From positions 1 through 64,000 of IMG/VR virus record IMGVR_UViG_2834368228_000004: a stretch of DNA of 64,000 nt. One strand, given 5' to 3'. The notes beneath the pieces are model-generated. The model ran no database searches. It saw only the letters and a program-made list of their open reading frames with translations, and was not told the origin of the DNA. Shown piece after piece: positions 5,107 to 55,226 of this stretch. Both the position numbers and the translations under genes were made by a program. The stretch comes from a virus (Duplodnaviria; Caudoviricetes). Position 1 is the first letter of the stretch, and the number at the start of each line of letters is the position of its first letter.

Positions 5107-5656
5107 TATGAGAGAAGAATTAAGACTACCAATGATGATGTTTGGAAGTTTCAAACAGACTAAAGCTAAGCGTGATGAAAACAACAAGACGATTAAAAAA
5201 CCAAATGGACAATATGTGCTTCAAAAGTATACAAAAGTTCATAATGAAATGGCAGGAGACCCTGGAGTTTTTCCAAGTGTCAATCACATATATCAGCGAA
5301 CCAAAAATGGAAGGCAAAAACTTACTAAGCCTGCTGAAAATTTATTAGAAAAATGGAATTCGTTAGCACAGATTTGGTCCTATAATAATGGCTGGGAGCT
5401 AAGAAGTGACAAGGTTGTCGTTGAGATAACAACATACTTTCCTAACGACAATAAAGAGCGTGACACTCATAATGCGATTAAGTTAATGATGGATGCTTTA
5501 GAAGGAGTTATTTATAAAAAGGACAGCAAAGCGCTCCCACGCATCATGGATTTTCATAAAGTTGAAGATAATGATGCTCCACACTTTATGCTAACTATTT
5601 ACAAGAAGGAAGAAGAATATGAAATTATGCAATCAAGGTATAGAGAAGCTAGTTAA
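5093..5656 (+). CDS. rusA: RusA-family Holliday junction resolvase
   Basis: PSVNH and RDTHNAIKLMMDALEGVIYKKD match the RusA DxxNxxKxxxDaL pattern. Confidence 0.8.
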   Translation: MGYINMREELRLPMMMFGSFKQTKAKRDENNKTIKKPNGQYVLQKYTKVHNEMAGDPGVFPSVNHIYQRTKNGRQKLTKPAENLLEKWNSLAQIWSYNNGWELRSDKVVVEITTYFPNDNKERDTHNAIKLMMDALEGVIYKKDSKALPRIMDFHKVEDNDAPHFMLTIYKKEEEYEIMQSRYREAS

Positions 5657-6383
5657 AGAAATTCATAATGGAAAAGACCCATCAGAACTTGTTGAGCAAT
5701 ACGATAACTTTATTAATAAATATTTACGCATGTTCACACATGGAACCATAGACTTCTCTAATTATGATTTGCGTATGTTCCTTAGCTGCTATATTAAGAA
5801 TGAAACTGATAGAAGAAATTTAAGAAGAGGTAAATATCATTCTAAACAAGATTATGCAAATGCATATGAAGTATTAAACTATTTGCAGCAAGCATTTGAA
5901 GATTACGAGAGTAGAGAAATCTATCATGAATTAGTTATTCCCTTCTTGATTTGCATAAAAAGATACACATTTATGAATAAAAGTTTTAGTAAATATCTTT
6001 ATAGCACTTATAGGTATGAATTGCTTAGACATATTAATAACTTAATCTTCCAACGAGCTAAAGTAACAGAGATGAGTCAGCCTTCTGTTGAATTAGAAAT
6101 CAACATCAAAGAAGAGGAAGAAATGTATTTCGATGATGATTTAAAACTCAATCATCCATATTGGTTAAACGGTAAAGATACACTCGACCCTTTTAACCAA
6201 TTCAGGAGAGAAGAGAGACTTATTTTAGTTAAGTATTACTTAGAGAAGTACACAGACCAAGAAATTGGAAGACTGATTGGAAGAAATAGAAGATCCGTTA
6301 ATCGGTCCAGACTGCGTGTAATTCGAAAACTCGAAGATGATATAAGAGGAGGGCAAGTAAAGTGGAGCAGGTGGATACATTAG
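5619..6383 (+). CDS. Sigma-70-family RNA polymerase sigma factor-like protein
   Basis: Region-2-like IKRYTFMNKSFSKYLY and region-4 HTH EERLILVKYY...TDQEIGRLIG...RVIRKL. Confidence 0.75.
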   Translation: MKLCNQGIEKLVKEIHNGKDPSELVEQYDNFINKYLRMFTHGTIDFSNYDLRMFLSCYIKNETDRRNLRRGKYHSKQDYANAYEVLNYLQQAFEDYESREIYHELVIPFLICIKRYTFMNKSFSKYLYSTYRYELLRHINNLIFQRAKVTEMSQPSVELEINIKEEEEMYFDDDLKLNHPYWLNGKDTLDPFNQFRREERLILVKYYLEKYTDQEIGRLIGRNRRSVNRSRLRVIRKLEDDIRGGQVKWSRWIH

Positions 6384-6983: not shown

Positions 6984-9900
6984 ATGGGGGCTATAACTGA
7001 TAATATTGTACATATACATGTTCACTCTGAAGATAGCAAACTAGATGGACTGCCAACAATCAATGACCTGATTAAAAAGGCTAAAGAAATAGGCAGTCCA
7101 GCTCTTGGATTAACAGACCATGGAGTAATGGGAGGAATTGCTAGCTTTATACAAGAATGTAAAAATCAAGGAATAAAACCTCTTCCAGGTATCGAAGCGT
7201 ATCTAGTTAAGAATAGACACCTTCATGGACCTGAACTAGAAAACATTCGCTTATATCTTGGAGATAAATATAAAATTGTTGATAAAAAAGGAAAGTTTAC
7301 TAAAAAACCTTTCAATGAATTTATTAAGAAGATAAAAAAAGATATAAGATGCTTTGAAGAAGAAGCAGAGGAATTACTAAAAGGCTACCTTATGAATGAT
7401 GAAATGGACTTATTTGACCTGCTTGATGGAAGTGTAGATCTAAACCAAAGTACAGAAAGTAAAATAGCTGAATTTAAAGCAGATATCCTCAAATATTTGG
7501 ATTATGCCAGCAATGACCACTTGCTCCTTCTAGCTATGAACGATCAAGGATTGAAGGATTTATATAAAATTAGCAGTGATGCTCACATTAATGGATTCTA
7601 TTCTGATCCAAGAACCGATTTAAAGTTTATTCAACAAAATAATTTAGGTGAAAATATTATTGCTACCTCTGCATGTTTAGGTAGCACACTTGCAAGATAT
7701 GCAATGAATGGCCGAATGAAAGAAGCGGTTCAATTTATTGAAGAGTGCAAAAAAACTTTTCATGCATTCTACTTAGAAAAGCAAGCTGTTGTTAGTAGAG
7801 ATCAAGTTGAATACAACAAGCTTATTGATGAATTAGCAGAGAAGACCAATACACCTAAAGTAATTACAACAGATGTTCATTTTGCCAATAAAGAAGATCA
7901 TGAGTTACACGATATTCTAGTTGCAGGATCAATGAAAAAATGTGTTCTAGATGAAGACCGATACATCTATTCTGAAGACCATTACATGAAAACAGTCGAA
8001 GAAATTAGGAAAAACTTCAGAGACGAAGAAGCTATCGCAAACACACTTAGGATTGCAGACATGGTTGATGTTAGCCTTCCAACTGAGCCACTGTTTCCAC
8101 GTTTCCCGGTTGAGGACGGAGATAGCGTAGAAGAAGTATTGCGCAAAAAGTCTTGGGAAGCATTGTTTCAATACTGCTTGAAGAATCCTGATATTGACTT
8201 TAATAAATATGCGAACCAGTTAAATTATGAGTTGGATGTTATTTGCTCTGAAGGTTTTGCAGATTACTTTCTAATTACAGAGGACTTTATCAATGCCGCT
8301 CAAGCAGAACACTATCTTGTAGGTCCTGGTCGTGGGTCAGCTGCAGGTTCCCTTGTTTGCTTTGTGTTAAATATTACTACGGTAGATCCTTTACAAAATG
8401 GATTGCTCTTTGAGCGCTTCCTAAACCCAGAGCGAGCAGGTTATCCGGATTGAAAATAAACCTTAATATGTTTCCTGAAACACAACTCACTATTCAAAAG
8501 ATTCAGAATCTGATAAAATAAGGGTATAAAACTTTTGAATAGGAGTGAAAAAATGGCTAAAAAATATATTGTAAAATTTCATTGTGAATTTTGTGGAAAA
8601 TCTGTAGAAACATTAAGTTACAGAAAAAATTTAAAGTATTGTTCTTTCAGTTGTAAGTCAAAGAAAACATAATGAGATTTTCTAATGCAATATATAATAA
8701 CGCAACTATATATCTAGAAAGAAAATATAATAGATATTTAAGGTTAAAAGCACAGTCCCTTACATCAGAGATGGTGTAAGCAAACTCTGAATATGCTGGA
8801 AAGCCCTTAGAGCCCTTGTTAGTAGCAGCTACTAGAAATGGTAGTCAGCATCTAAAAATACAAGGGATTGGGTAATCAGCAGAGATAGACCTAAGTGCAT
8901 GAATGCATACGGTAAGCTCTCAACGACTACCAAGGAGCATCTCACTGAGATGATGGTATAGTCTACTCCCCTATAAAAATATCGGGAAACCGAGGGTATA
9001 AAGGGTCGATATTGATATGGGCTATAACGCTTCTCGTTGGACTCAACTTTATTTAAAGCGAAAATATGGTACAGATAAAGTAGCCCAAATCGGTACTGAT
9101 GGAACATTGGCTGCTAGATCAGCAATTAAATTTATTACAGATGCACTTGGATATACTGAGAAAAACAAAAATCTTAAAGATGTATTTGCAGCTGCAGTTC
9201 CAAATGATCCAGGAATTTCACTTACAAAAGCATATGCTCAAAGTGATGAGTTGAAAAAGTATGCGAAACACTATCCAGATATATGGAAAGCAGCATTAGG
9301 TGTGGAAGGACATAAGAGGTCGGTTGGTGTTCATGCATCTGGTATAGTAATATCACCTAAGCCTTTAACAGACATTGTTCCGCTTCGATTAGATAGTGAA
9401 GGATTAGAAACTACAGAGTATGACATGGAATGGATTGAAAAATTCCTTGTAAAATTCGATTTATTAAAACTTGATACGCTTGATTTAATTGAAAGAGCTA
9501 TGAAAAATGCTGGGATATTAGGTAAAGTAAATATCAATGATATTGATTTAAATGACCCCAACATTTATGAAAGAGTGTATCGTACAGATCAGTTAGAAGG
9601 AATCTTCCAGGTTGAATCTGAAGGTATGAGAAATGTTATTAAAGAACTGCAGCCTAACTGTTTTGAAGATATAGGAGTAGTTGTTGCCCTATACAGACCG
9701 GGTCCAATGGATTTAATACCAACTTATATAAATCGTAAGTTTGGTAGAGAGAAAGTTAGTTATCCTTTTGATGAGTTGGAACCAGTATTAAAAGATACTT
9801 ACGGCGTCTGGGTGTACCAGGAGCAAATTATGGAAGCTTCCAGGATACTTGGTGGTTTAACATTAGGACAGGCAGACATGATACGTAAAGGTGTATCCAA

Positions 9901-11017
9901 GAAGAAAGTTAAACTTATGCATCGATGGATTGACTTAATGATTTATGGTTCTGCAGATTACATTCGCATACAGGAAGAAAGAATTCAACAATATCCAGAA
10001 CCATCATCTGTTCCATTAGATGATAACGGAGATCCAACTGTATGGGTAGACCATGATGAGTATAAAAAAGGTTGGAAAGGCATACCCGAAATTGAAGGGG
10101 CTCTTCAACGAGGATTTGATCTCAATAAACTACTTAAACTTAAAGAACAATGGATTAAGTTCGGGGAGTACTGTTTCAACCGTGCACATAGTGCTGCTTA
10201 TGCAAAAATATCAATTCAAACAGCATACTTGAAATGCTATCATCCTACAGAATTTATGGCAGCGCTTCTTAGCATATCTGAAGGAAAGAAAGATAAAAAT
10301 AAAAAATCAAAAAACGTTAACTATATTCCTATTTGTGAGGAAATGGGTATTCAGATTCTTCCTCCAGACATCAATGAATCTAAAAGCGATTGGACACCAA
10401 TCATTGAAATTCAAAGAGATGAGCAAGGAAATGAATTTCAGAAAGGCTATATCAGGTATGGTATTGGAAGCATAGCTGGCGTAAGAAATGCTGCAGTCGA
10501 CAATATTATTATGAATCAACCATATGACAGTGTAGATATGTTAATTGAATCCACTGACAGCAGCAAGGTAAATAAGACTAAGGTTATCAATCTTATAAAA
10601 GCTGGATGTTTTGATTCAATCAATAAAAACCGTAATGCATTACTTAATGAATACGGAAAGCGTATAGGAGAAAATTTAGAAGTAAAAGAAACGACCACCA
10701 AAACAGATATTATCCAGTATGAACGTGAAACACTTGGGATTAGCGTAACCATCAAATCTAGATGGATGACAATACCTGATGGTAAAGCAAACATTCAGTT
10801 TACTGGAATACTTCAAGAGATTGATCCTTTCGTTAGTCAAAAAGGTCAAGAGCATTGTCGCATTAAGATTGAAACAAATGAAGACACTATTTCTGGAATA
10901 ATATTTAATCGCAATTGGATGAATTTAAAAGACCAGCTCATTGTAGGAGCTAAAGTAGTTGTAAAGGGTAAGAAAAACAACGATAGTCTCCAAGTAAATA
11001 GTGTTGCTCAGGGGTGA
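6984..11017 (+). CDS. dnaE: DNA polymerase III alpha subunit, split by a group I intron (exons 6984-8450 and 9005-11017, about 1159 aa)
   Basis: [30 protein letters not shown]; splicing restores PD|VDID in frame; KFDLL and FNRAHSAAY in exon 2. Confidence 0.95.
8451..9004 (+). mobile_element. Group I intron in dnaE (554 nt) with a decayed homing endonuclease in the P1 loop
   Basis: Exon 1 ends in T and intron ends in G; P1 GGAT|TG pairs with CAGTCC; core elements ATGCTGGAAA, AATCAGCAG, TCAACGACTAC, GTATAGTC. Confidence 0.92.
8553..8779 (+). pseudogene. Internally deleted homing endonuclease remnant
   Basis: 39-aa CxxC/CxxxC N-terminal fragment (8553-8672), then out-of-frame [13 protein letters not shown] resembling LAGLIDADG C-termini (8672-8779). 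Confidence 0.7.
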
Positions 11018-16783: not shown

Positions 16784-16810
16784 TAAACATATATTTAAAA
16801 GAGCCGATAT
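16784..16810 (+). promoter_or_regulatory. Sigma-D (sigma-28) promoter TAAA-N15-GCCGATAT
   Basis: Exact consensus with 15-bp spacing and an upstream AT-rich tract; 30 bp before csrA. Confidence 0.9.
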
Positions 16811-16840
16811 AACTATTGTAATCATCAAGGAGGATGAAAA

Positions 16841-17026
16841 GTGGCATTAGTTCTAGGTAGAAAAGTAGGAGAAAAAGTAGTCATTCAAGACGATCAAGGA
16901 AGAGAAGTCGAGATTAAAGTAATTAAAGGAGAAGGTGGCTTAAAGCATTCTCTTAAGCTAAGAATCTCAGCTCCACAAGAATTCAATATTATTCGTGGAG
17001 AGATTTATGACGGTAATAACTCCTAA
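16841..17026 (+). CDS. csrA: Carbon storage regulator CsrA, short form
   Basis: LVLGRKVGEKVVI...LRISAPQEFNIIRGEI fits the CsrA pattern. Confidence 0.88.
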   Translation: MALVLGRKVGEKVVIQDDQGREVEIKVIKGEGGLKHSLKLRISAPQEFNIIRGEIYDGNNS

Positions 17027-17044
17027 CAGGAGATATTATATATA

Positions 17045-17093
17045 CTAGCATCTCACAAGGATAGGGTTTGCTAGAAAAACAAACACACGGAGG
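17045..17093 (+). promoter_or_regulatory. Putative CsrA-binding sites in the flagellin leader
   Basis: Hairpin CTAGCA...TGCTAG with ACAAGGA in the loop, plus ACGGAGG overlapping the SD, as in Bacillus hag leaders. Confidence 0.65.
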
Positions 17094-17102
17094 TAGATAA
17101 TT

Positions 17103-17975
17103 ATGATTATCAATCACAACATTTCAGCTCTTAATGCACATCGTCAATTAGGAGCAAACCAAGGAGCAGTACAAGGTTCATTGGAGAAACTTACTTCAGG
17201 TCTTCGTATCAACAAAGCAGGCGATGACGCTGCGGGACTAGCAATCTCAGAAAAAATGCGTGGCCAAATTCGTGGATTAGAAATGGCTTCTAAGAATGCA
17301 TCGGACGGAATAAGTCTTATACAAACTGCCGAGGGAGCTCTTAACGAAACTCATTCAATCCTTCAACGTATGCGTGAACTAACAGTTCAAGCTGGAAATA
17401 CAGGAACTCAGGAAGATGTCGATCTTCAAGCAATTCAGGATGAAATTGCTTCATTGAAAGAAGAAATTGGTGGAATGGCTGATGGTAGTAAAGGTATTGC
17501 TGACCGCACACAGTTTAATGGAAAAGACCTTCTTAATGGAGATTTTGCAGATACTGTGGCTGAAATTACTTTCCAAATCGGAGCAAATGGTGGGCAACAA
17601 TTAACTGTCAATATTGCTGATATGAGAGCTACAGCTATTGGAACAGAAGGCGGAACAATGATTTCTGATATTGATGTTACTGATTTCACAACTACAGATT
17701 TCGATACTCAATTGCAAGCCATTGATGATGCAATCAATCAAGTATCTACTCAACGTTCTTCTCTAGGAGCAGTGCAAAATCGTTTGGAACACACAATTAA
17801 TAACCTTGGAGCTTCATCTGAAAACCTAACAGCTGCAGAATCTCGAATCAGAGACACTGATATGGCTAAAGAGATGATGGAATTCACTAAGAACAATATT
17901 CTTTCTCAAGCAGCTCAAAGCATGTTGGCGCAAGCAAACCAACAACCACAAGGAGTATTACAATTACTTCAATAA
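17103..17975 (+). CDS. hag: Flagellin
   Basis: MIINHNISALN...SGLRINKAGDDAAGLAISEKMR and LGAVQNRLEH...QGVLQLL conserved termini. Confidence 0.98.
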   Translation: MIINHNISALNAHRQLGANQGAVQGSLEKLTSGLRINKAGDDAAGLAISEKMRGQIRGLEMASKNASDGISLIQTAEGALNETHSILQRMRELTVQAGNTGTQEDVDLQAIQDEIASLKEEIGGMADGSKGIADRTQFNGKDLLNGDFADTVAEITFQIGANGGQQLTVNIADMRATAIGTEGGTMISDIDVTDFTTTDFDTQLQAIDDAINQVSTQRSSLGAVQNRLEHTINNLGASSENLTAAESRIRDTDMAKEMMEFTKNNILSQAAQSMLAQANQQPQGVLQLLQ

Positions 17976-17980
17976 TAACA

Positions 17981-18018
17981 AACAAAGCGCAGTATTTTAT
18001 CTGCGCTTTGTTATTTTA
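17981..18018 (+). terminator. Intrinsic terminator after flagellin
   Basis: AACAAAGCGCAG/CTGCGCTTTGTT hairpin followed by a T-rich tract. Confidence 0.85.
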
Positions 18019-19157: not shown

Positions 19158-19469
19158 TTATACATCATGATAAGCACTGAAATGTTTTACAATTTCTTTC
19201 ATATCATCTGCACTCAATTTTCCTAAAGGTGTTTTCGATATGTTGTCAAAAAACGCATAACGATCAAATTGGACATGAGATACTTTATTTAAACCGGAAT
19301 TAGGACTGTTTTTTATTTCAATCCTATTACTTCTAGAGGTCCCAGTTATTTTTAACCCAAGAGCCTTACCCTTGTCTTCTGAAAGCACAAGAATAAGGAC
19401 AGGGCGATTTTTGCTGCCCTGTCCATCTTCATATGGGAATTCTAATTTATAGATATAACCTGGCTGCAT
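19158..19469 (-). CDS. PemK/MazF-family toxin
   Basis: FPYEDGQGSKNRPVLIL, LKITG, GLNKVS, LGKLS. Confidence 0.8.
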   Translation of the reverse strand: MQPGYIYKLEFPYEDGQGSKNRPVLILVLSEDKGKALGLKITGTSRSNRIEIKNSPNSGLNKVSHVQFDRYAFFDNISKTPLGKLSADDMKEIVKHFSAYHDV

Positions 19470-19690
19470 TACTCATCCTCCATCCAAAATTTATAATTTG
19501 GATGGTCTGGTGAGATATTTACTCTCCCAAACTTGTCAACTTGCAAGGGATCTTGATTTTTCAGCTTAGTTACGTCAATTGTTTTAGAAATAGCACTTAA
19601 CTTACGTGCTTCGGCATCTTCACGAACTTTTCTAGCTGAACGAAGAGTTGAATGATTTACAGAACGTCTACTAGGAGTACTTATAGTCAT
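19469..19690 (-). CDS. Putative antitoxin of the PemK-like toxin
   Basis: Small gene with GGAGG RBS whose stop overlaps the toxin start. Confidence 0.6.
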   Translation of the reverse strand: MTISTPSRRSVNHSTLRSARKVREDAEARKLSAISKTIDVTKLKNQDPLQVDKFGRVNISPDHPNYKFWMEDE

Positions 19691-19880
19691 TTTTTTGCCT
19701 CCTTTTTTCTTCAACTGATCACCACCTATTGGATAAACAGTATATGCAATTACATTAAAAAGATACATTATAATTTAACTTTATCAGAAAAAGTCTGCTT
19801 TGTCTAAATATTAATAGATACGCAGAAACAAAGTTGTAGAAATGCAGTTTAGGTTTCCATGTCCTTTTTTTGTCTGTTTT

Positions 19881-20423
19881 CTATTCAAACAATTCTTTAA
19901 GGTCTGTGGATTTCATGGCCATAACTTTTCGCTCTCCATCGCTACCAATACATTTAAAGCCATGATCTTTATAGTATTGTTTAAGATCGGTTTTACATTC
20001 CAATGCAATTAGTGAAAATCCAATGACTTTGGTTAATTGATAACATTTATTGAGAAAGTGCATTAAGAATTGGGAACCTATTCCTTTATAGAGATCATTA
20101 TCGCATCTTCCAAAAAAGTGCAACTTTATAGAGGGGTAATCAACATCCTGATCAGTATACATGATGGGGCCCCATTCTTCTATTTCTCTTTCTGTTCCTC
20201 TCCGTATGTATTTTGCTAGTTTTGTGTATGCAGCATGCATGGCATAATAACCAATAACCTCACCCGTAGTTTCTTCGATAAAGACAGTTGTACGAGTGAG
20301 GTTCATTTCTTCACGTTTTCTTGATTCTTCTATTAAATATCTTTTAACTTTCTCATCCCTGCATTTAAAATTCTCTATTAGTTCCGGTTCAACTTCGAGA
20401 ACCTTTATCTCTTTTAGGTTCAA
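19881..20423 (-). CDS. GNAT acetyltransferase, TacT/AtaT-like toxin
   Basis: FKC...YL, VIGYYA, YPSIKLHFFGR, YKGIGS, YYKDHGF. Confidence 0.75.
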   Translation of the reverse strand: MNLKEIKVLEVEPELIENFKCRDEKVKRYLIEESRKREEMNLTRTTVFIEETTGEVIGYYAMHAAYTKLAKYIRRGTEREIEEWGPIMYTDQDVDYPSIKLHFFGRCDNDLYKGIGSQFLMHFLNKCYQLTKVIGFSLIALECKTDLKQYYKDHGFKCIGSDGERKVMAMKSTDLKELFE

Positions 20424-20658
20424 AGCGAATAATTCCTTCCTCTTTATTATAGTTTTTGTTAAACATAGCTAATTTTCCTTTTAAATTGCTCAGCCGTCTA
20501 AAATCATCTAATGTTGGAGGTGCTTCAATCCAATTTTTCGCACGTTGTAAATCAGCGTCGCTCTCGAACAGAACTTTACCTGAAACATTCTCTTCTCTAA
20601 GAACTAATGCTTCTCCCAATTTATTCTCCTCCTTTTCATTACCACTCATACTAATCAC
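20389..20658 (-). CDS. Putative antitoxin of the GNAT toxin
   Basis: Small upstream overlapping gene in TA arrangement. Confidence 0.55.
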   Translation of the reverse strand: MISMSGNEKEENKLGEALVLREENVSGKVLFESDADLQRAKNWIEAPPTLDDFRRLSNLKGKLAMFNKNYNKEEGIIRFEPKRDKGSRS

Positions 20659-20784
20659 CTGCTGTTTTCAGTCTAGTTATTAGTAGAGTTCCCTATATTT
20701 AGATTCATTATACCACATTTCCCCTTGTGTGAACGGCTAAATTTGTGGTTTTACTAACTCTGGAGCCTTAACAGTTAACCTTGT

Positions 20785-20826
20785 ACTGAAAACTACGTAT
20801 AACAATTCTTATACGAAGTTTTCAGT
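20785..20826. other. loxP-like recombination site (13-8-13 architecture)
   Basis: AAAACTACGTATA-ACAATTCT-TATACGAAGTTTT with ACTG/CAGT extension, about 200 bp upstream of the recombinase. Confidence 0.8.
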
Positions 20827-20903
20827 AACTAACAGCCAAGAATCTCCTATTCTCATAATTTAACTCCCCTTTCATGTCAATATAAGTTAACAGGAAAAAC
20901 TGG

Positions 20904-20917
20904 CGAACATCTGTTCA
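20904..20917. promoter_or_regulatory. LexA/DinR box CGAACATCTGTTCA
   Basis: Near-consensus Cheo box between divergent TTGACA (minus) and TTGACT (plus) -35-like hexamers. Confidence 0.7.
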
Positions 20918-21028
20918 CTTGACTACCCTCTTTTGACCTTGCTCTAAAATTACATCGTTTTATACGAAGTTTTCATTGCGAGTTTTTAATTTATTTGCTA
21001 CCTTATATATAATAAGGAGCTGGTAGAG

Positions 21029-22102
21029 ATGACGCCTGAGCAAAAAAGAAGGCTCTTGGATCAGAGTAAACTTCATTTAATCGATTTACCCTGGTATGTG
21101 AATGAATATGTTGATTATCGAATTAATGCTAGTGCTAACACGCTCTACAACTATACAAGAGATTACTATAAGTTTTTTGAATGGATGGTTCAGGAAGAAT
21201 TGCATCCTGGTCCAATGAAGGATGTAGATATTTACACCTTAGAAAAGCTTACAATACAAAACATCATTAGCTACGAAAGATATTGTATAAGAAACAATAA
21301 TCAAATTGATACAATAGCAAGACGACTCACCTCCCTTAAATCTTTATTTCATTATTTATCTCAGATTGCTGAGGATGAAGAAGGATATCCCTACCTACAG
21401 CGTAATGTTATGATGAAAATAAATATTCGCAAAGAACGACTTTCTGATAAGAAAAAAGCTGAAAAAATCGCAAGCAAAATATTAGTTGATGATGAGATAA
21501 ATGCTTTTCGGCAATTTATACGTGAAGGGTATGGAAGGTATTTAATAAGTAGAGATGAAATACGAAGACATAGTGCTCATACATTCAACAGAGAGCGTAA
21601 TTTAGCATTAATAAGTTTAATGCTTGGATCCGGATTGAGAATTAGTGAAGCCTTAAGTATTGATGTGGATTCAATTGACTGGAATCGTAGACAAGTGGAT
21701 ATTGTAAGAAAAGGAGACTCCGGTGACATTGCATCATTTAGTGATGTAGCAGCAGAAGATATGAGAAAATATTTGGAAATACGTGAAAAAAGATACCAAA
21801 TAGATCGAACTAATAAAGCTTTCTTTATCTCCAGGAGAACGGGTAATGGTAAGTCTAATCGCTTAACAGTTAGAGCAGCACAATTAATGATAAAAAACTA
21901 TGCATCTGCATTCGGTAAAGCAACATTGACCATGCATAAGTTAAGGCATAGCTTTGCTACGAATCATTATAAAATTAATAAGGATCTAGCAATGCTAAAG
22001 GAAATACTTAATCATGCAAATGTAGAAACAACAATGATTTATACTTATATATCGGATAAACAAATTGAACAGTCAATAAACAAAGCAGACAGGATCATCT
22101 GA
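21029..22102 (+). CDS. Tyrosine recombinase (XerS-like)
   Basis: GLRISE, RKG, HKLRHSFAT, LNHANVETTMIY catalytic residues. Confidence 0.93.
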   Translation: MTPEQKRRLLDQSKLHLIDLPWYVNEYVDYRINASANTLYNYTRDYYKFFEWMVQEELHPGPMKDVDIYTLEKLTIQNIISYERYCIRNNNQIDTIARRLTSLKSLFHYLSQIAEDEEGYPYLQRNVMMKINIRKERLSDKKKAEKIASKILVDDEINAFRQFIREGYGRYLISRDEIRRHSAHTFNRERNLALISLMLGSGLRISEALSIDVDSIDWNRRQVDIVRKGDSGDIASFSDVAAEDMRKYLEIREKRYQIDRTNKAFFISRRTGNGKSNRLTVRAAQLMIKNYASAFGKATLTMHKLRHSFATNHYKINKDLAMLKEILNHANVETTMIYTYISDKQIEQSINKADRII

Positions 22103-23249
22103 CTGCTTTGTGATTGATTACATTGTATATGTACTCTCCATTTTCTTCCCATACCTTTTCAAACTCTTCTGAGGAATACCCTTCTTTAGTAAACCTTCCA
22201 ACTAGTTTGTTTTTTATATGCCAATCAGGAACTGGAGGTATAGTACCTTTACTCTCATTAAGATACCTCATAATAATATCTTTTGTTTTTTCATCTTTAG
22301 CATTTATTTTGGAAGCAGATTTTAAATAATCTTTTCTTCTAGATTTGAGAATAGTAGTGATATATGCTCCTACATGTCCCACATTAGTAGAATATTGTTG
22401 CATATCTTCAAGAACAGCTTTTAGCTCATCAATTCCAAATATTGTCCAGGCTCTAATTTGTCTATTTGGAATATCATACCCATATTCTTTAATAAGAGGT
22501 CTTGCTTTTTCTAAAAATACTTTTATGTCCTCTTCCTTTAGATTACCTCCTAGATCTAAGCTATCTGTAATTTTGATATCAAACTTAATTTTAGCTGTTT
22601 TTCTTCCTTCTTTGATTTCTTCAAAGTCGTATGTTAAAACATTTATATCATCAAGCTCTTCTTTTACTCTCATAAGTATTCTTGATTTAAAATGTCCATA
22701 CTGTTTGTATTTATCTTTAACTCCAAGATGCTCCTTTAATTTGTCTAATTCAAAGGTTCTTTTTCCTATTGGAGCATATTGCTGAAGCAACTCAAATAAT
22801 CGTATTGTATAGGGGCTTTGCATATTTCCAATTGTAGGGAATGAGTATTTTGTGTAACGTCCTTGCTCGGTTAGGTTGATTAAGTATGGCTTGATTAAAT
22901 CATTAAATGTTATATGTACCATTCCGCTTCTATATACAATACCTTTAAACCAAGGAAACCACCCTTCTTCATCTTCAGTCTTTATACGAATTCTTTTTCT
23001 AGTTAATTCACCAGCCATCTTTTTCACTTTGCTGTGATAACTTTTACTTGATATACCGGCAGCATTAATAAACTCTGTTACTGTAAATGAGACATTAGGA
23101 AAATGATCTGGAGACTTATTAATCTTAGCTGCTGCATAACGAATGATTTTATGCTCTGTTGCAGTTAAGTCATCCTCATAAATCGCCTCTACTAAATCAT
23201 TTGCCTGATAGACTTGTACTCTATTCTCTTTTTTTATCTTTTCGCCCAT
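22095..23249 (-). CDS. Rep_3/RepB-family plasmid replication initiator
   Basis: QANDLVEA, YTIRLFELL, FKSRIL and EIKEGRK motifs; ORF-track extension to 23402 reads through the iterons. Confidence 0.9.
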   Translation of the reverse strand: MGEKIKKENRVQVYQANDLVEAIYEDDLTATEHKIIRYAAAKINKSPDHFPNVSFTVTEFINAAGISSKSYHSKVKKMAGELTRKRIRIKTEDEEGWFPWFKGIVYRSGMVHITFNDLIKPYLINLTEQGRYTKYSFPTIGNMQSPYTIRLFELLQQYAPIGKRTFELDKLKEHLGVKDKYKQYGHFKSRILMRVKEELDDINVLTYDFEEIKEGRKTAKIKFDIKITDSLDLGGNLKEEDIKVFLEKARPLIKEYGYDIPNRQIRAWTIFGIDELKAVLEDMQQYSTNVGHVGAYITTILKSRRKDYLKSASKINAKDEKTKDIIMRYLNESKGTIPPVPDWHIKNKLVGRFTKEGYSSEEFEKVWEENGEYIYNVINHKAVR

Positions 23250-23325
23250 ACAACCAGTCCAATACATTATATTGCTTATTATTATTTCATAATAAAAATA
23301 GTAATTCAATAGATTTATTGAAGTC

Positions 23326-23786
23326 TCACAGATAGGGTACGTGTGATGTTTAACAACTATCACACATTGGGTACTTGTGATGATCTTTGAAGTATCACAC
23401 ATTGGGTATCTGTGATTTTATAAGCAACTATCACAGATTAGGTACCTGTGTTTTATGTAAACTATCACACATTGGGTAATATCCAAATATAGACCCCCTA
23501 TGTATTACCCGATGTGTGATAGTTATAAACAAATGTAAATCGTTTATACCCCATGTACCCTATCTGTGATAACAAAAAAGCTGTTATAGCAGGAATTATA
23601 AGGAAAATAGATTATCCCTATACCCAATGTGTGATAGTAATACCCTATCTGTGATGGTTAACCCCACAAGTGTGATAATTGAGTACCTATTCTGTGATAC
23701 TTTAATACCCTATCTGTGATCGTTAAACCCTACAAGTGTGATAGATTAGTACCCGATTCGTGATGTTTCGCACCCTATCCGTGATA
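23326..23786. repeat. Iteron array (about 15 copies, consensus TACCCWATSTGTGATA): replication origin
   Basis: 5 copies in one orientation (23326, 23358, 23393, 23429, 23463) and 10 inverted (23506-23771), followed by an AT-rich tract 23830-23945. Confidence 0.9.
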
Positions 23787-44227: not shown

Positions 44228-46897
44228 TTAGATTCTTCGCTTTACTTGCTTCATTAAATGAGGATGATACTGTGATAGAACATTGTAAAGCTCATTGAAT
44301 GTGTCTTTAATGTCCCATTGTGCTTCGTCAGACGTTCTAAGATTAATTAAGTGGTAAGCTTCCCATAAGTCAAAATTAGCCACTACACGTCTCTTATGTG
44401 CGTTTAAAATAAGATAGTCCGCTTCTTGATCGAAACCTTTTTCTACAAAGCTTACATACTGTGCAAATACTTTTTCATGTAAGTTCACTAAGAGATGTTC
44501 TAAACCAGCTGCTTTAATTCTTGGTGGAATTACTAATCCATTTTGCATAGAAGGCCCAGCAAACATAAAATCTGTTTTGCGGTTATGTCGCAAGAGCTGA
44601 TGCCAATTTGCTTCTGATACTTTTAGCTCAACCTGATAATTAACAGACTTAAAAGCTTCTGGTGCTGTATCAAAATGTTTAATATCAAAGAGAAGCTGTT
44701 CAATAATTTGATTTCTTTTTGCATAATCTAATTCTCTGGCACGATTAAGTGCAACTGAATAAGGAATATTTGATTGCTGTACAAAATATAAAGCTAAAAT
44801 ATTTAAAACCTCATCAAGTTCAAGGCCGACAGTAAGAACTTTAACATCACGTTGTAAACCTTGATCATCTTGAGTGGAATTAAAATTAGATTCAATAACA
44901 GATTGATGTTTTTTCTGGTATGGAGAAGCATCTGCGTATTTTAGTAAGACTGGTAATACTTTTGTTATCTCTTCTTTCAACGCTTTACGCATATCTTTAA
45001 CTTCAGTGTATTTGCTTGTCTCTAATTGTGCTAAGCCATCTCTCCAAGCACGACCATTAGCAGTCATACCTAATTGAGTGTACATGGCTAAAGGTAATGC
45101 ATAACGAGCATCTTCAAATGCAAGCTTTTTTAATGCATTATAGTCAGAAGACAGTTCTTTATCGATTTTAGTTAATTCCTTAACATTTTTATCATTCTCT
45201 TTTTGTTTCTTCTTAAGCTGTTTAAATTCTATAGAATCGTGATATTCAGATTTCAAATCCTTATAGACTTCATCAATTAACTTCTCAAATACATCAAAAC
45301 ATTCATTCATAGACTGTTCAAATTCTTTATGTTCTTTGCTATTCTTTTTGAATGGATTATGCCAATCACCACGTTTAGGCTTTTGATATCGCTGACTGTA
45401 TTCTGTAATACTGTAAAATGTATTACTAAGTTCAAGATCTGCACTTGCTAGTCGAGATACCTTTTCAATACCGACATGTGCTACAGCATGTTCTGCAACG
45501 CTGTTTCCGCTAATATGAACTCTTCCATTTCGACGCACAATTAATGTGTGATACTTTGGCAACTCTGCACAATAAACTAAACCACTGTAATCCTCCCAGT
45601 CATCAAAAATGTCATATTGAACTTTATTAACCATCGATTCAAGTAGCTTTTTTGTAATAAATAATCTCCATCCATCCTTATGGTTTTCAGATTGTGCAGG
45701 TCGCTCATAACTAAGATATGAACTCCAGCCTAATAGTAAAACTAAATGTTGCACTTGATCTGCTAATGTTTTACTAGAAGTATCATATACCATTGATCCA
45801 TTTCTATGATCTTTACTTCCATCTGAATTCATTAAGCCATCAAATAAATAATGAAGAATTGTGGAATCAAGTTCTAGAAGATTATCTGGGATTTGTTTTT
45901 CTCTATTTTCGTCATAACATTTTGATAAGATATCACCAATATCATTATTGTTAGATGTGATATAGAACTTATAATTTTTATTTGCTGAAATTGATAAGCC
46001 TAACTGTTCACAGAGAGAATATAGATAATCAATTTTACGTTGTTTTTTAATATGAAACTGAACTGAATGTTTTGTTCGGGTATCAATGTAACCATCTCCA
46101 ATAAAAAAGCCAAAAAGTTGTAGTAATGGCTCAATTGGGTATCCATATAATGTATCGGAAACGTCCCCATTCCAATTTAATCCACCTAATCTAACCTTAT
46201 AACATTTGTCTTTTAAATCTTCAGCATTAATTAACTGATATTTACGAGTTTCGAATTCTTTAATCTTATGACGAGGCCATGCAAAAACCTTATGATTTGG
46301 TGTTACCATCATATCTATACGGTTTCGATCAACCTTATACATTGGTCCAGTATAAGGTTCTTCAATGAGTTTAACTGGCTTTAAATATTCAACTTCTAAA
46401 GAGTCAGGATTTACAGATGCTAATTTATCATCATCATTAACACTAAACCAGTTTTTAAATCCTTTCTCCGTAAGAACTTCAGTTTTCTCATCGTAGCAAC
46501 TATGTCCGTACCCGACAGTCCACTTTTCATGAAAATCTTTTGCTTTCTTATCAAGACTAGTAAAAGTGTCTTGCTTCGGAACTTCTATATCAAATTCTTT
46601 TAAAGCTATTTGTAAATGTTCCTTAAACGATTTAGGTGAACGGGATACCCATGCGAATAAAGTTGCAACAAACTCTTCTGGTAAGTTTTTAATGGCATAG
46701 ATGTTCCCTTCTGGATTGCTGACAAAAGGAGAGATATCGATTGTTTTTTCTGTTTGTTTATTCTCTGATGATTCAGTTTTTGTAGGTCTTTTCCTTGTTG
46801 TGTTTCTCTTTTCTACTGTAGAAGTCTTATTGGAATCATTGATTTCTTCCTTTACTTCGACTTTTGTATTCTTTTCTTCTTGTTTTGTATTTGACAT
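44228..46897 (-). CDS. thyX: FAD-dependent thymidylate synthase (tandem ThyX domains) with intein
   Basis: GYGHS|SVAEH after intein removal, EYSQRY, DARYALP, NGRAW; second domain QLLRHNRK and LRTSDEAQWDI. Confidence 0.9.
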   Translation of the reverse strand: MSNTKQEEKNTKVEVKEEINDSNKTSTVEKRNTTRKRPTKTESSENKQTEKTIDISPFVSNPEGNIYAIKNLPEEFVATLFAWVSRSPKSFKEHLQIALKEFDIEVPKQDTFTSLDKKAKDFHEKWTVGYGHSCYDEKTEVLTEKGFKNWFSVNDDDKLASVNPDSLEVEYLKPVKLIEEPYTGPMYKVDRNRIDMMVTPNHKVFAWPRHKIKEFETRKYQLINAEDLKDKCYKVRLGGLNWNGDVSDTLYGYPIEPLLQLFGFFIGDGYIDTRTKHSVQFHIKKQRKIDYLYSLCEQLGLSISANKNYKFYITSNNNDIGDILSKCYDENREKQIPDNLLELDSTILHYLFDGLMNSDGSKDHRNGSMVYDTSSKTLADQVQHLVLLLGWSSYLSYERPAQSENHKDGWRLFITKKLLESMVNKVQYDIFDDWEDYSGLVYCAELPKYHTLIVRRNGRVHISGNSVAEHAVAHVGIEKVSRLASADLELSNTFYSITEYSQRYQKPKRGDWHNPFKKNSKEHKEFEQSMNECFDVFEKLIDEVYKDLKSEYHDSIEFKQLKKKQKENDKNVKELTKIDKELSSDYNALKKLAFEDARYALPLAMYTQLGMTANGRAWRDGLAQLETSKYTEVKDMRKALKEEITKVLPVLLKYADASPYQKKHQSVIESNFNSTQDDQGLQRDVKVLTVGLELDEVLNILALYFVQQSNIPYSVALNRARELDYAKRNQIIEQLLFDIKHFDTAPEAFKSVNYQVELKVSEANWHQLLRHNRKTDFMFAGPSMQNGLVIPPRIKAAGLEHLLVNLHEKVFAQYVSFVEKGFDQEADYLILNAHKRRVVANFDLWEAYHLINLRTSDEAQWDIKDTFNELYNVLSQYHPHLMKQVKRRI
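45503..46498 (-). mobile_element. Intein (332 aa) with LAGLIDADG endonuclease domain
   Basis: CYDEKTEVLT start, VTPNH block B, FGFFIGDG and FDGLMNSDG, HISGN|S end. Confidence 0.93.
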
Positions 46898-46919
46898 TAT
46901 TATTCCTCCTATGTAATGC

Positions 46920-47019
46920 ATTAATGCACAGCATAGAGCTGATTGGTTGAAACTACCTTGTCAGGGGTGTTTCACCATCCTTTTTATATTTTTTATTCAG
47001 CCCTATGCTGTGCATTAAT
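46920..47019 (-). ncRNA. Long hairpin in the thyX leader
   Basis: ATTAATGCACAGCATAGAGCTGA/TCAGCCCTATGCTGTGCATTAAT stem with a nested inner hairpin. Confidence 0.55.
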
Positions 47020-54614: not shown

Positions 54615-55226
54615 TTAGGCGTTAAGAGAAAATTTTGTATCTCTTAATCTTTTTAAACGTTTCTCAATAGAGTTAACTGAACGATTTAATATATTAGCAA
54701 TATCTTTCTGTTTCATATTTTGGTTATAATACATATTCCATAGCTTTGTATCTTTAGCTGGAGTCCAATACTTCCCTTTATTTGAAGGTAATTGCACATC
54801 TATGGATATTTGCTCATCTAACCATTCTGGTTCTGGATTTAAAACTCTTCGCTCAATTCGTGACCAAATATAAAGATCTCTATTATTGCTGGCCCAATTC
54901 CAAAACCTTTTTACATCAATATAGTAAGGTTGGTTTTTTGAATTATTTCCTTTGAAGTAGAGTTTTTCACCTGGAAGACCTTTTTCATGTATATGCCTTA
55001 TTATTGTACTAGTATCCACATGAAGTGTTTTAGCTAATTCATTAGCAGAAAACATTCCAGTTTCTATGTGCTTTGTTGCACCCAATCTCTCCAATTGTCT
55101 TTGGACAGATCCTGGAGTTCGATTAAGACGTTTTGCTATAGCCTTAATTGTCTTGACTCTCCCTACTAGGAATAAGAGTTCTTCGTTTGCTTCTTCTGTC
55201 CAAGGATTTATATATTGATTAGACAA
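54615..55226 (-). CDS. Multi-HTH DNA-binding protein
   Basis: WTEE...IAKRLNRT and WTPA...IANILNRS repeats. Confidence 0.7.
   Translation of the reverse strand: MSNQYINPWTEEANEELLFLVGRVKTIKAIAKRLNRTPGSVQRQLERLGATKHIETGMFSANELAKTLHVDTSTIIRHIHEKGLPGEKLYFKGNNSKNQPYYIDVKRFWNWASNNRDLYIWSRIERRVLNPEPEWLDEQISIDVQLPSNKGKYWTPAKDTKLWNMYYNQNMKQKDIANILNRSVNSIEKRLKRLRDTKFSLNA

Follow-up and report, generated by a model that had tools for sequence, protein, structure and literature searches.

Flagellin homeostasis by Hag, FliW, and CsrA is a textbook checkpoint. In Bacillus subtilis, CsrA represses the translation of hag, and FliW antagonises CsrA by way of the CsrA C-terminal extension. The chromosomal form of this partner switch, in the order fliW-csrA-PsigD-hag, has reportedly been described by Mukherjee (in 2011 and 2016), Altegoer (in 2016), and Oshiro (in 2019).

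The contacts involved have been placed by mutagenesis and by a Geobacillus co-structure: FliW touches CsrA at I/V51 and N55, both in the helix that comes first beyond the RNA-binding strand. N55 does not vary among species that have FliW, and the N55D substitution in B. subtilis abolishes FliW binding (PMC7829508). On the flagellin side, FliW binding requires no more than the N-terminal 72 residues, and FliS and export depend on the C-terminal D0 (PMC6070490). A further study describes Hag, FliW, and CsrA as working near a 1:1:1 ratio, with hypersensitivity to the level of Hag (PMC6529632). On mobile DNA, csrA genes have been found without flagellin on many plasmids and phages, for example, the rsm alleles of Pseudomonas and CsrT of a Legionella ICE (PMC7366521). 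The closest published analogue of the locus described here is a flagellin-remodelling prophage: FRphi of Enterobacter, which carries tldR-fliC(P), replaces the host flagellin, and accessory CsrA proteins linked to alternative flagellin loci bind another fliC 5' UTR at a CAAGGAUG stem-loop (PMC13418256).

Here, we describe a two-gene csrA-flagellin unit that runs from promoter to terminator at positions 16784-18018 of the window, by which we mean the whole 64-kb stretch of viral DNA analysed; the element to which it belongs spans 198 kb or more. A sequence-only reading of this DNA had listed a perfect sigma-D promoter, a 61-aa CsrA, a leader with GGA sites, an intact 290-aa flagellin, and a closing terminator, and every one of these parts was present. 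The features are as follows.

16784..16810, plus strand: promoter of the sigma-D (sigma-28) type, TAAA-N15-GCCGATAT; a consensus match, and the unique exact one in 64 kb.
16822..16837, plus strand: small hairpin UCAUC-AAGGAG-GAUGA with the csrA Shine-Dalgarno (SD) sequence, AGGAGG, in its loop; from RNA folding.
16841..17026, plus strand: csrA, 61 aa, GTG start; Pfam PF02599 at 48.6 bits (cut-off, 27).
17020..17032, plus strand: 5-bp hairpin CUCCU-AAC-AGGAG over the csrA stop, followed by an AU-rich run; a terminator-like match.
17045..17074, plus strand: hairpin of the leader, placed like hag BS1, the loop of which contains CACAAGGAU; -8.6 kcal/mol, with 3 of 200 shuffles folding as well.
17085..17095, plus strand: SD region of the flagellin gene, ACACGGAGGUA, placed like hag BS2; from its position and its conservation in relatives.
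17103..17975, plus strand: flagellin gene, 290 aa, short Hag type without D2/D3 domains; Pfam N and C domains.
17981..18012, no single strand: bidirectional intrinsic terminator at the end of the cassette; 12-bp stem, -19.1 kcal/mol, z = -8.3.

Several of these parts recall the Hag-FliW-CsrA system of B. subtilis, specifically, the sigma-D promoter, the RNA-binding residues of CsrA, a GGA hairpin combined with a GGA at the SD, and a flagellin of the short Hag type. The layout, however, departs from the B. subtilis switch in two ways. First, the cassette is without fliW. Second, its promoter lies 5' of csrA, as had been noted beforehand, whereas in the chromosomal loci compared it lies between csrA and hag, so that here both genes would be carried on one sigma-D transcript. 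The exact promoter match occurs once in the window, where 0.37 sites would be expected by chance if one mismatch were allowed; it stands 31 nt from the csrA start, and the transcript is expected to begin near 16818. It resembles the hag promoter of Ornithinibacillus (locus L021) and also the promoters 5' of csrA in loci L001-L004, L006, L007, L009, L107, and L188. From the match to the consensus we infer that transcription of the cassette would depend on sigma-D. Both the GC skew and the gene orientation change at the terminator, and Rfam searches of the window returned only sub-threshold, terminator-like matches. RNA-labelled runs matched in small shares only; their coverage was confined to the flagellin gene, at 90-95% likeness and with different flanks, and we therefore assigned those reads to a relative rather than to the window's cassette. 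We also weighed, and set aside, the idea that a sigma factor encoded by the phage reads this promoter; there is only one such promoter in 64 kb. Sigma-like ORFs do occur in the window, at 5619-6383 and 54615-55226.

The genes around the cassette are those of a phage and a plasmid. They include genes for nucleotide metabolism (ribonucleotide reductase [RNR], NrdI, dCMP deaminase, and an intein-bearing ThyX), for replication (a split DnaE-type polymerase, a DnaN-like clamp, helicases, a primase, a RecA/UvsX-like protein, SSB, and UDG), and of phage or plasmid type (an endolysin, a tyrosine recombinase, a plasmid initiator of the Rep3 family, and a toxin of the PemK type). RNR, DnaE, the endolysin, and the RecA-like protein count as phage genes. 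The flagellin gene has csrA and a gene for a 123-aa XRE HTH protein as its neighbours. The window covers the arm of a large phage-plasmid that is devoted to replication and nucleotide metabolism. No other flagellar family was detected among the scanned ORFs of at least 110 aa in this 64-kb part of the element, in line with what had been read from the letters. A chromosomal flagellar locus, which the sequence-only reading had itself set against its proposal of a self-contained cassette on a mobile element, is ruled out by these surroundings, which are of phage and plasmid type with no flagellar gene among them. Further, the DnaE of the window shares 52-54% identity with the DnaE of a family of “plasmids” of 140-260 kb from Bacillus and Paenibacillus, 36 contigs of up to 198 kb are on record with exactly this CsrA, the 24 CsrA-bearing contigs that were read have a common gene context, and near-identical cassette DNA was found in 17 runs from about six studies of soil and animal-gut metagenomes. 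The carrier is a widespread large phage-plasmid of a soil and animal-gut relative of Bacillus. A megablast search with 20 kb gave no match in plasmid or phage collections, and in the genomes considered as hosts (Ornithinibacillus, Paucisalibacillus, Paraliobacillus, Oceanobacillus, and Sediminibacillus) only the chromosomal DnaE was found, with no relative of the element.

In its broad outline, the cassette is like FRphi, in that a temperate element brings its own flagellin together with a putative repressor aimed at flagellin expression. The two differ in the nature of that repressor, which would here be a translational RNA-binding protein and not an RNA-guided, TnpB-derived transcription factor; no scanned ORF of the window matched the TnpB/TldR-like family, and the flagellin gene on this temperate element has no tldR beside it. 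They differ, too, in their hosts, which are Gram-positive for the cassette, and in that replacement of the host flagellin, a finding for FRphi, is a proposal for the cassette.

The CsrA of the cassette, for which the precomputed PF02599 assignment agrees with our profile match, retains its RNA-binding positions in the alignment (the L2/L4/R6/R7 region and V42/R44/I47), and its MALVLGRK and IIRGEIY segments have LVLSRK and IHRKEIY as their aligned counterparts in B. subtilis CsrA (1t3o) and Ornithinibacillus CsrA. Relative to the B. subtilis protein, it has two loop insertions and is without the FliW-contact helix. Its C-terminus reads RGEIYDGNNS and stops five residues past EIY, which upholds the earlier observation that the C-terminal extension is missing. 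The CsrA of a metagenome contig (L107) has the same 61-aa length and the same tail at 62% identity, and the dN/dS of csrA between the two is 0.16; the short form is under purifying selection, and its truncation is not decay. A tblastn search with the 61-aa protein against phages gave no match.

The aligned CsrAs that have fliW immediately upstream (at least 50 fliW-linked loci) all show R-x-E-x-x-x-x-[IV]-x-x-x-N. The I/V...N signature is missing from the window CsrA and from all of its mobile partners, which either end early or continue into unrelated sequence. An HMM seeded on Pfam-validated FliW, which recovered 52 chromosomal FliWs, detected none among the ORFs of at least 40 aa in the 64-kb window of this element of at least 198 kb, as the earlier reading had it, and Pfam FliW was found in none of the 10 whole records of related mobile elements that were searched. 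The window CsrA therefore falls outside the FliW-regulated subclass on both counts, with neither the I/V51-N55 helix nor a fliW in the 64-kb window, and it is very probably independent of FliW. One Lentibacillus genome contains a canonical fliW-csrA pair as well as a short csrA-flagellin cassette, and a cell carrying the window's element would likewise combine the canonical pair with a short CsrA.

The leader between csrA and the flagellin gene spans 76 nt and has the geometry of a hag leader, with one GGA in the loop of an upstream hairpin (AAGGAU, in the hairpin at 17045-17074) and another overlapping the SD (ACGGAGG at 17087-17093). Hairpins with GGA loops and different stems lie at the equivalent place in L006, L007, L107, and L188, and in the host leaders L021 and L027. 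ACACGGAGGTA is kept 5' of the flagellin gene in L002, L003, L006, L007, and L009, and in L002 and L009 the ACACGGAGGTA/ACACGGAGGUA motif makes up the final csrA codons. Built on 28 hag leaders from chromosomes, the covariance model R1 found only a 4.2-bit local match in the window leader, a departure from the chromosomal, B. subtilis-like loci in addition to the residence of the unit on a phage-plasmid; the model scores the leaders of L005, L006, L076, and L010 at 16-33 bits and the nearest host leaders, L021 and L027, poorly. The window leader belongs to a lineage-specific class. As the R1 match is not significant, the case for CsrA control of this leader rests on its hairpin and GGA geometry and on its homology to L107, L113, and L188.

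Two other hairpins bear on the regulation of csrA itself. The csrA SD lies 7 nt 5' of the GTG start, and the CAUCAAGGAGGAUG element there is kept in L006, L007, L107, L113, and L188, making the hairpin at 16822..16837 a candidate CsrA autoregulation site to which the protein would bind. The hairpin over the csrA stop (17020..17032), for which the pairing is kept in L107 and L113 with differing loops, could be a weak attenuator or an additional GGA site.

GGA hairpins stand within the cassette itself at the csrA SD as well as in the flagellin leader, and these would also be expected if CsrA mainly capped the bicistronic mRNA of a possibly multi-copy element, with host hag being no purposeful target; the extra hag gene would thereby neither overload the cell nor upset the 1:1:1 balance of Hag, FliW, and CsrA. 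The constant co-transcription or even overlap of csrA and the flagellin gene, the hypersensitivity of the near-1:1:1 circuit to Hag (PMC6529632), and a near-identical flagellin variant in the same samples (see below) all fit such buffering. A role in cis only, however, offers no reason for the consistent loss of FliW control in every lineage, and the similar leader of the host would be within reach of a free CsrA dimer as well. We consider this account unlikely, if well short of negligible. Across the window, hairpins with A.GGA in the loop number 177, against 128 in crude shuffles that form a weak control, and the count does not discriminate between readings. This modest excess, together with the many csrA genes that occur on plasmids and phages without flagellin (PMC7366521; also L012-L020), might be taken to favour a general regulator that acts on the element or the host, for example, on the lysis-lysogeny decision or on metabolism, its link to flagellin marking a capture site only. 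Those CsrA/Rsm paralogues resemble the cassette's CsrA in being mobile copies presumed to retune the post-transcriptional control of the host, but they are paired with neither flagellin nor a flagellar promoter and belong to sRNA-antagonised CsrA systems. In the lineage studied here, csrA always lies directly 5' of flagellin, behind a flagellar promoter, and no specific second target was found; with the A.GGA excess itself measured against so weak a shuffle control, we regard a general regulator as decidedly improbable.

The flagellin covers both of its Pfam profiles end to end (Flagellin_N, PF00669, 149.9 bits; Flagellin_C, PF00700, 114.3 bits), and it is 80% identical to that of Ornithinibacillus xuwenensis. 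Against chromosomal Ornithinibacillus flagellin, its terminal blocks are 87-97% identical, confirming the D0/D1 termini as host-like, and its centre is 47-53% identical. The dN/dS is 0.11 overall, with values of 0.07 for the N-terminal, 0.32 for the central, and 0.05 for the C-terminal part. Given this high identity and low dN/dS at the termini, both the FliW-binding N-terminus and the C-terminal D0 are conserved, and the conserved D0/D1, with terminal dN/dS of 0.05-0.07, suggests a flagellin that can be exported and can enter the filament. Such genes are rare among phages: any flagellin homologue was present in 11 of 50,697 phage records.

Conservation of the N-terminus also enters into another possible account, in which a CsrA blind to FliW constitutively represses all hag-type mRNAs while the flagellin serves mainly as a cytoplasmic sponge for FliW that frees host CsrA, with the resulting scarcity of flagella excluding flagellotropic phages or saving resources. 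The absence of the FliW helix from CsrA agrees with such a shut-down of motility, and the FliW-binding N-terminal 72 residues (PMC6070490) are 90-97% identical to the host type. A sponge, however, needs the N-terminus only, whereas the whole flagellin is strongly selected, including the C-terminal D0 (dN/dS 0.05), and the centre varies widely in relatives (290 to 471 aa), as would be expected for the exposed surface of a filament. We think it improbable that the cassette works in this way.

The same metagenomes also contain a flagellin gene that is 93-94% identical in DNA; its flanks are different, and most of its differences fall on third positions of codons. This variant may be the host hag or another cassette; if it is the host hag, then the subunit of the element is nearly the same protein, and a change of filament surface becomes weak as a rationale. 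A scan of metagenome contigs found no flagellin above 76% identity, and it recovered the relatives L107 and L113.

Beyond the window, the promoter-csrA-leader-flagellin scaffold is seen again, without fliW, some 20 times, in phages and proviruses, on large plasmids of Bacillus and Paenibacillus, and on a few islands of chromosomes, so that the survey for csrA-flagellin pairs on plasmids and phages proposed by the sequence-only reading turned up many. Specifically, csrA lies directly 5' of the flagellin gene in Bacillus phage EZ-2018a, and the pair is found on six plasmids of 200-215 kb (from B. halotolerans, B. licheniformis, B. paralicheniformis, and Paenibacillus urinalis) and in seven IMG/VR contigs of 41-173 kb, complete proviruses among them, in one of which the cassette lies just ahead of the gene for the small terminase subunit. 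L107 and L188 both have the scaffold. In the metagenome contig L107 the pair sits beside an AIPR abortive-infection (Abi) gene, and in the Lentibacillus genome it is on a chromosomal island adjoining the cox genes. The plasmids of B. licheniformis, B. halotolerans, and P. urinalis, along with EZ-2018a, share with the window both the architecture of the cassette and the element family (DnaE 52-54% identical), but their CsrAs have other, non-homologous tails of 65-76 aa, and their csrA abuts or overlaps hag. In the literature searched, we found no study of the csrA-flagellin cassette or of the plasmid and EZ-2018a pairs, only annotation.

A sigma-D-like promoter precedes csrA in most of the mobile units, and the relatives have two motifs in common, CAUCAAGGAGGAUG where the SD of csrA lies and ACACGGAGGUA where that of the flagellin gene lies. 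With flagellins of 290 to 471 aa within one conserved scaffold, the scaffold appears to travel, with the flagellin matching the host. The window CsrA is only 46% identical to CsrA of the genus Ornithinibacillus, while the flagellin is host-like. A quick tree, made from few columns and showing long branches, puts this CsrA among the mobile ones and apart from the chromosomal clade (SH-aLRT 93), and on the same quick tree the mobile label requires 3 changes, compared with 14.2 in shuffles. One chromosomal copy (L113) has a frameshifted csrA and an intact flagellin gene, from which CsrA appears to be dispensable in some settings. The resemblance of the flagellin, promoter, and leader to those of the host lineage could be explained by a recent acquisition of inert passenger DNA from the host chromosome. 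Yet neither ORF is disrupted and their dN/dS is 0.11-0.16, the scaffold is conserved over different host genera and element types, and the recurrence of the identical CsrA in a common context and of the cassette across runs and studies, described above, likewise speaks against it. We hold a passenger origin of this kind to be barely credible.

Taken together, these observations make it well supported that the cassette is a functional, selected, mobile unit with putative wiring to host sigma-D, and that it delivers a flagellin predicted to be assembly-competent along with a CsrA that FliW probably cannot antagonise. We propose that it is an accessory unit, or moron, of the phage-plasmid, plugged into the late-flagellar programme of the host. 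As the promoter match suggests, host sigma-D RNA polymerase would make a single csrA-flagellin mRNA. The flagellin of the element, judged by its conserved termini and purifying selection, would be able to bind FliW as well as FliS, to undergo export, and to polymerise. With the RNA-binding residues kept and the FliW-inactivation helix missing, the CsrA of the element would be an added repressor of hag-type leaders, one that the Hag-FliW-CsrA checkpoint of the host could not relieve. It would repress the hag-type leaders of host and cassette alike and also regulate itself, the GGA hairpins at the cassette's own SD probably keeping the repressor at a set level. Repression of both sets of leaders would, in turn, shift the supply of flagellin towards the element. 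Most likely, the net effect would be that translation of host hag is dampened and the element's subunit is fed in, giving a mixed or replaced filament, with flagellin supply coming partly under the control of the element.

How far this chain holds can be graded. Since a FliW-blind CsrA and a flagellin of its own are both placed under a host promoter, the element can probably interfere with the production of host flagella. That the cassette affects host flagellin supply or filament composition has, in our judgement, about an even chance of being right. This account as a whole, a moron with a FliW-blind CsrA that shifts flagellin supply, could equally well hold or fail. Selectivity for host hag stays a proposal, because the leader of the cassette also has CsrA-type sites, and the idea of outright replacement is weakened by the co-occurring 93-94% flagellin and by the frameshifted csrA of L113. 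More tentatively, and with the balance tilted against it, the cassette may represent a portable module for the post-transcriptional take-over of flagellin, with a scaffold that crosses phages, plasmids, and islands of the Bacillota and accepts a host-fitting flagellin, and a CsrA whose preferred target for silencing is the resident hag mRNA, which would leave the filament to be built from the element's subunit.

The short CsrAs would be natural separation-of-function variants, still able to bind RNA but no longer FliW, and as such they would be useful for dissecting the partner switch. To our knowledge, phage-driven flagellar remodelling has so far been shown only for the TldR system in Enterobacter. 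If the take-over reading is true, the cassette would be an independently evolved, protein-based counterpart of that RNA-guided system. A mobile element that brings in a CsrA immune to the checkpoint, along with a flagellin of its own, would be a natural hijacker of the Hag-FliW-CsrA circuit, and phage-driven flagellar remodelling would thereby extend to Gram-positive bacteria and to translational control.

The csrA-flagellin cassette adjoins a plasmid-maintenance cluster, and at about 18 kb the cumulative GC skew of the window reaches its maximum and gene orientation switches, exactly at the cassette terminator. Features of the window are as follows.

19158-23402: plasmid-maintenance cluster adjoining the csrA-flagellin cassette
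Within 19158-23402: PemK/MazF-like toxin, with a small partner upstream of the toxin
21029-22102: tyrosine recombinase
22095-23402, minus strand: Rep3 initiator
44228-46921, minus strand: ThyX (Thy1 domain), 897 aa, interrupted by a LAGLIDADG homing-endonuclease domain

The insertion in ThyX is as expected for an intein. Further, two ORFs (6984-8453 and 9017-11017) together make up a DnaE-type DNA polymerase, and the gap of ~560 nt between them could reflect an intron, the remains of a homing endonuclease or a genuine split.

The cassette's closest relative (L107:785-2941) has a short csrA, encoding a CsrA without the C-terminal helix that bears the FliW contacts, followed by two flagellin genes in tandem, and an AIPR (abortive infection) gene lies close by. 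A chromosomal copy of the cassette, on metagenome contig Ga0209487_1000632 (L113:4733-5828), has a DUF4317 gene on one side and ddl on the other. In this copy a 1-nt deletion puts csrA out of frame, with promoter, leader and flagellin still intact. In a Lentibacillus sp. MAG (L188:3216-4891), the same promoter-csrA-leader scaffold drives a flagellin of 471 aa whose centre is long and repetitive; cytochrome oxidase genes adjoin the unit, and that genome also holds a canonical fliW-csrA at another site. Short-tailed csrA-flagellin pairs also occur in a Peptococcaceae and a Clostridia genome (L072:4621-5879 and L076:4567-5816), among toxin-antitoxin, HTH and integrase-like genes and with no fliW within 5 kb of either pair.

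Soil and insect-gut sequencing runs (X14, X18-X20) contain a flagellin gene whose DNA is 93-94% identical to that of the window's flagellin gene (17103-17975). Most differences between the two genes fall at third codon positions, and both the upstream (…AAAAACATGGAGGTAGATTGATC) and downstream sequences of the variant are unlike those of the window.

In two mobile cassettes (L002:6017-6028 and L009:3983-3994), the last csrA codons (T-R-R-stop) themselves form the flagellin Shine-Dalgarno sequence, ACACGGAGGTA(A/G). The CsrA-like protein of Bacillus phage EZ-2018a (L003:5803-6006) begins MGLLLDITPEK, and the conserved R6/K7 RNA-binding pair is therefore replaced; judging from these residues, the protein may have altered RNA binding, or none.
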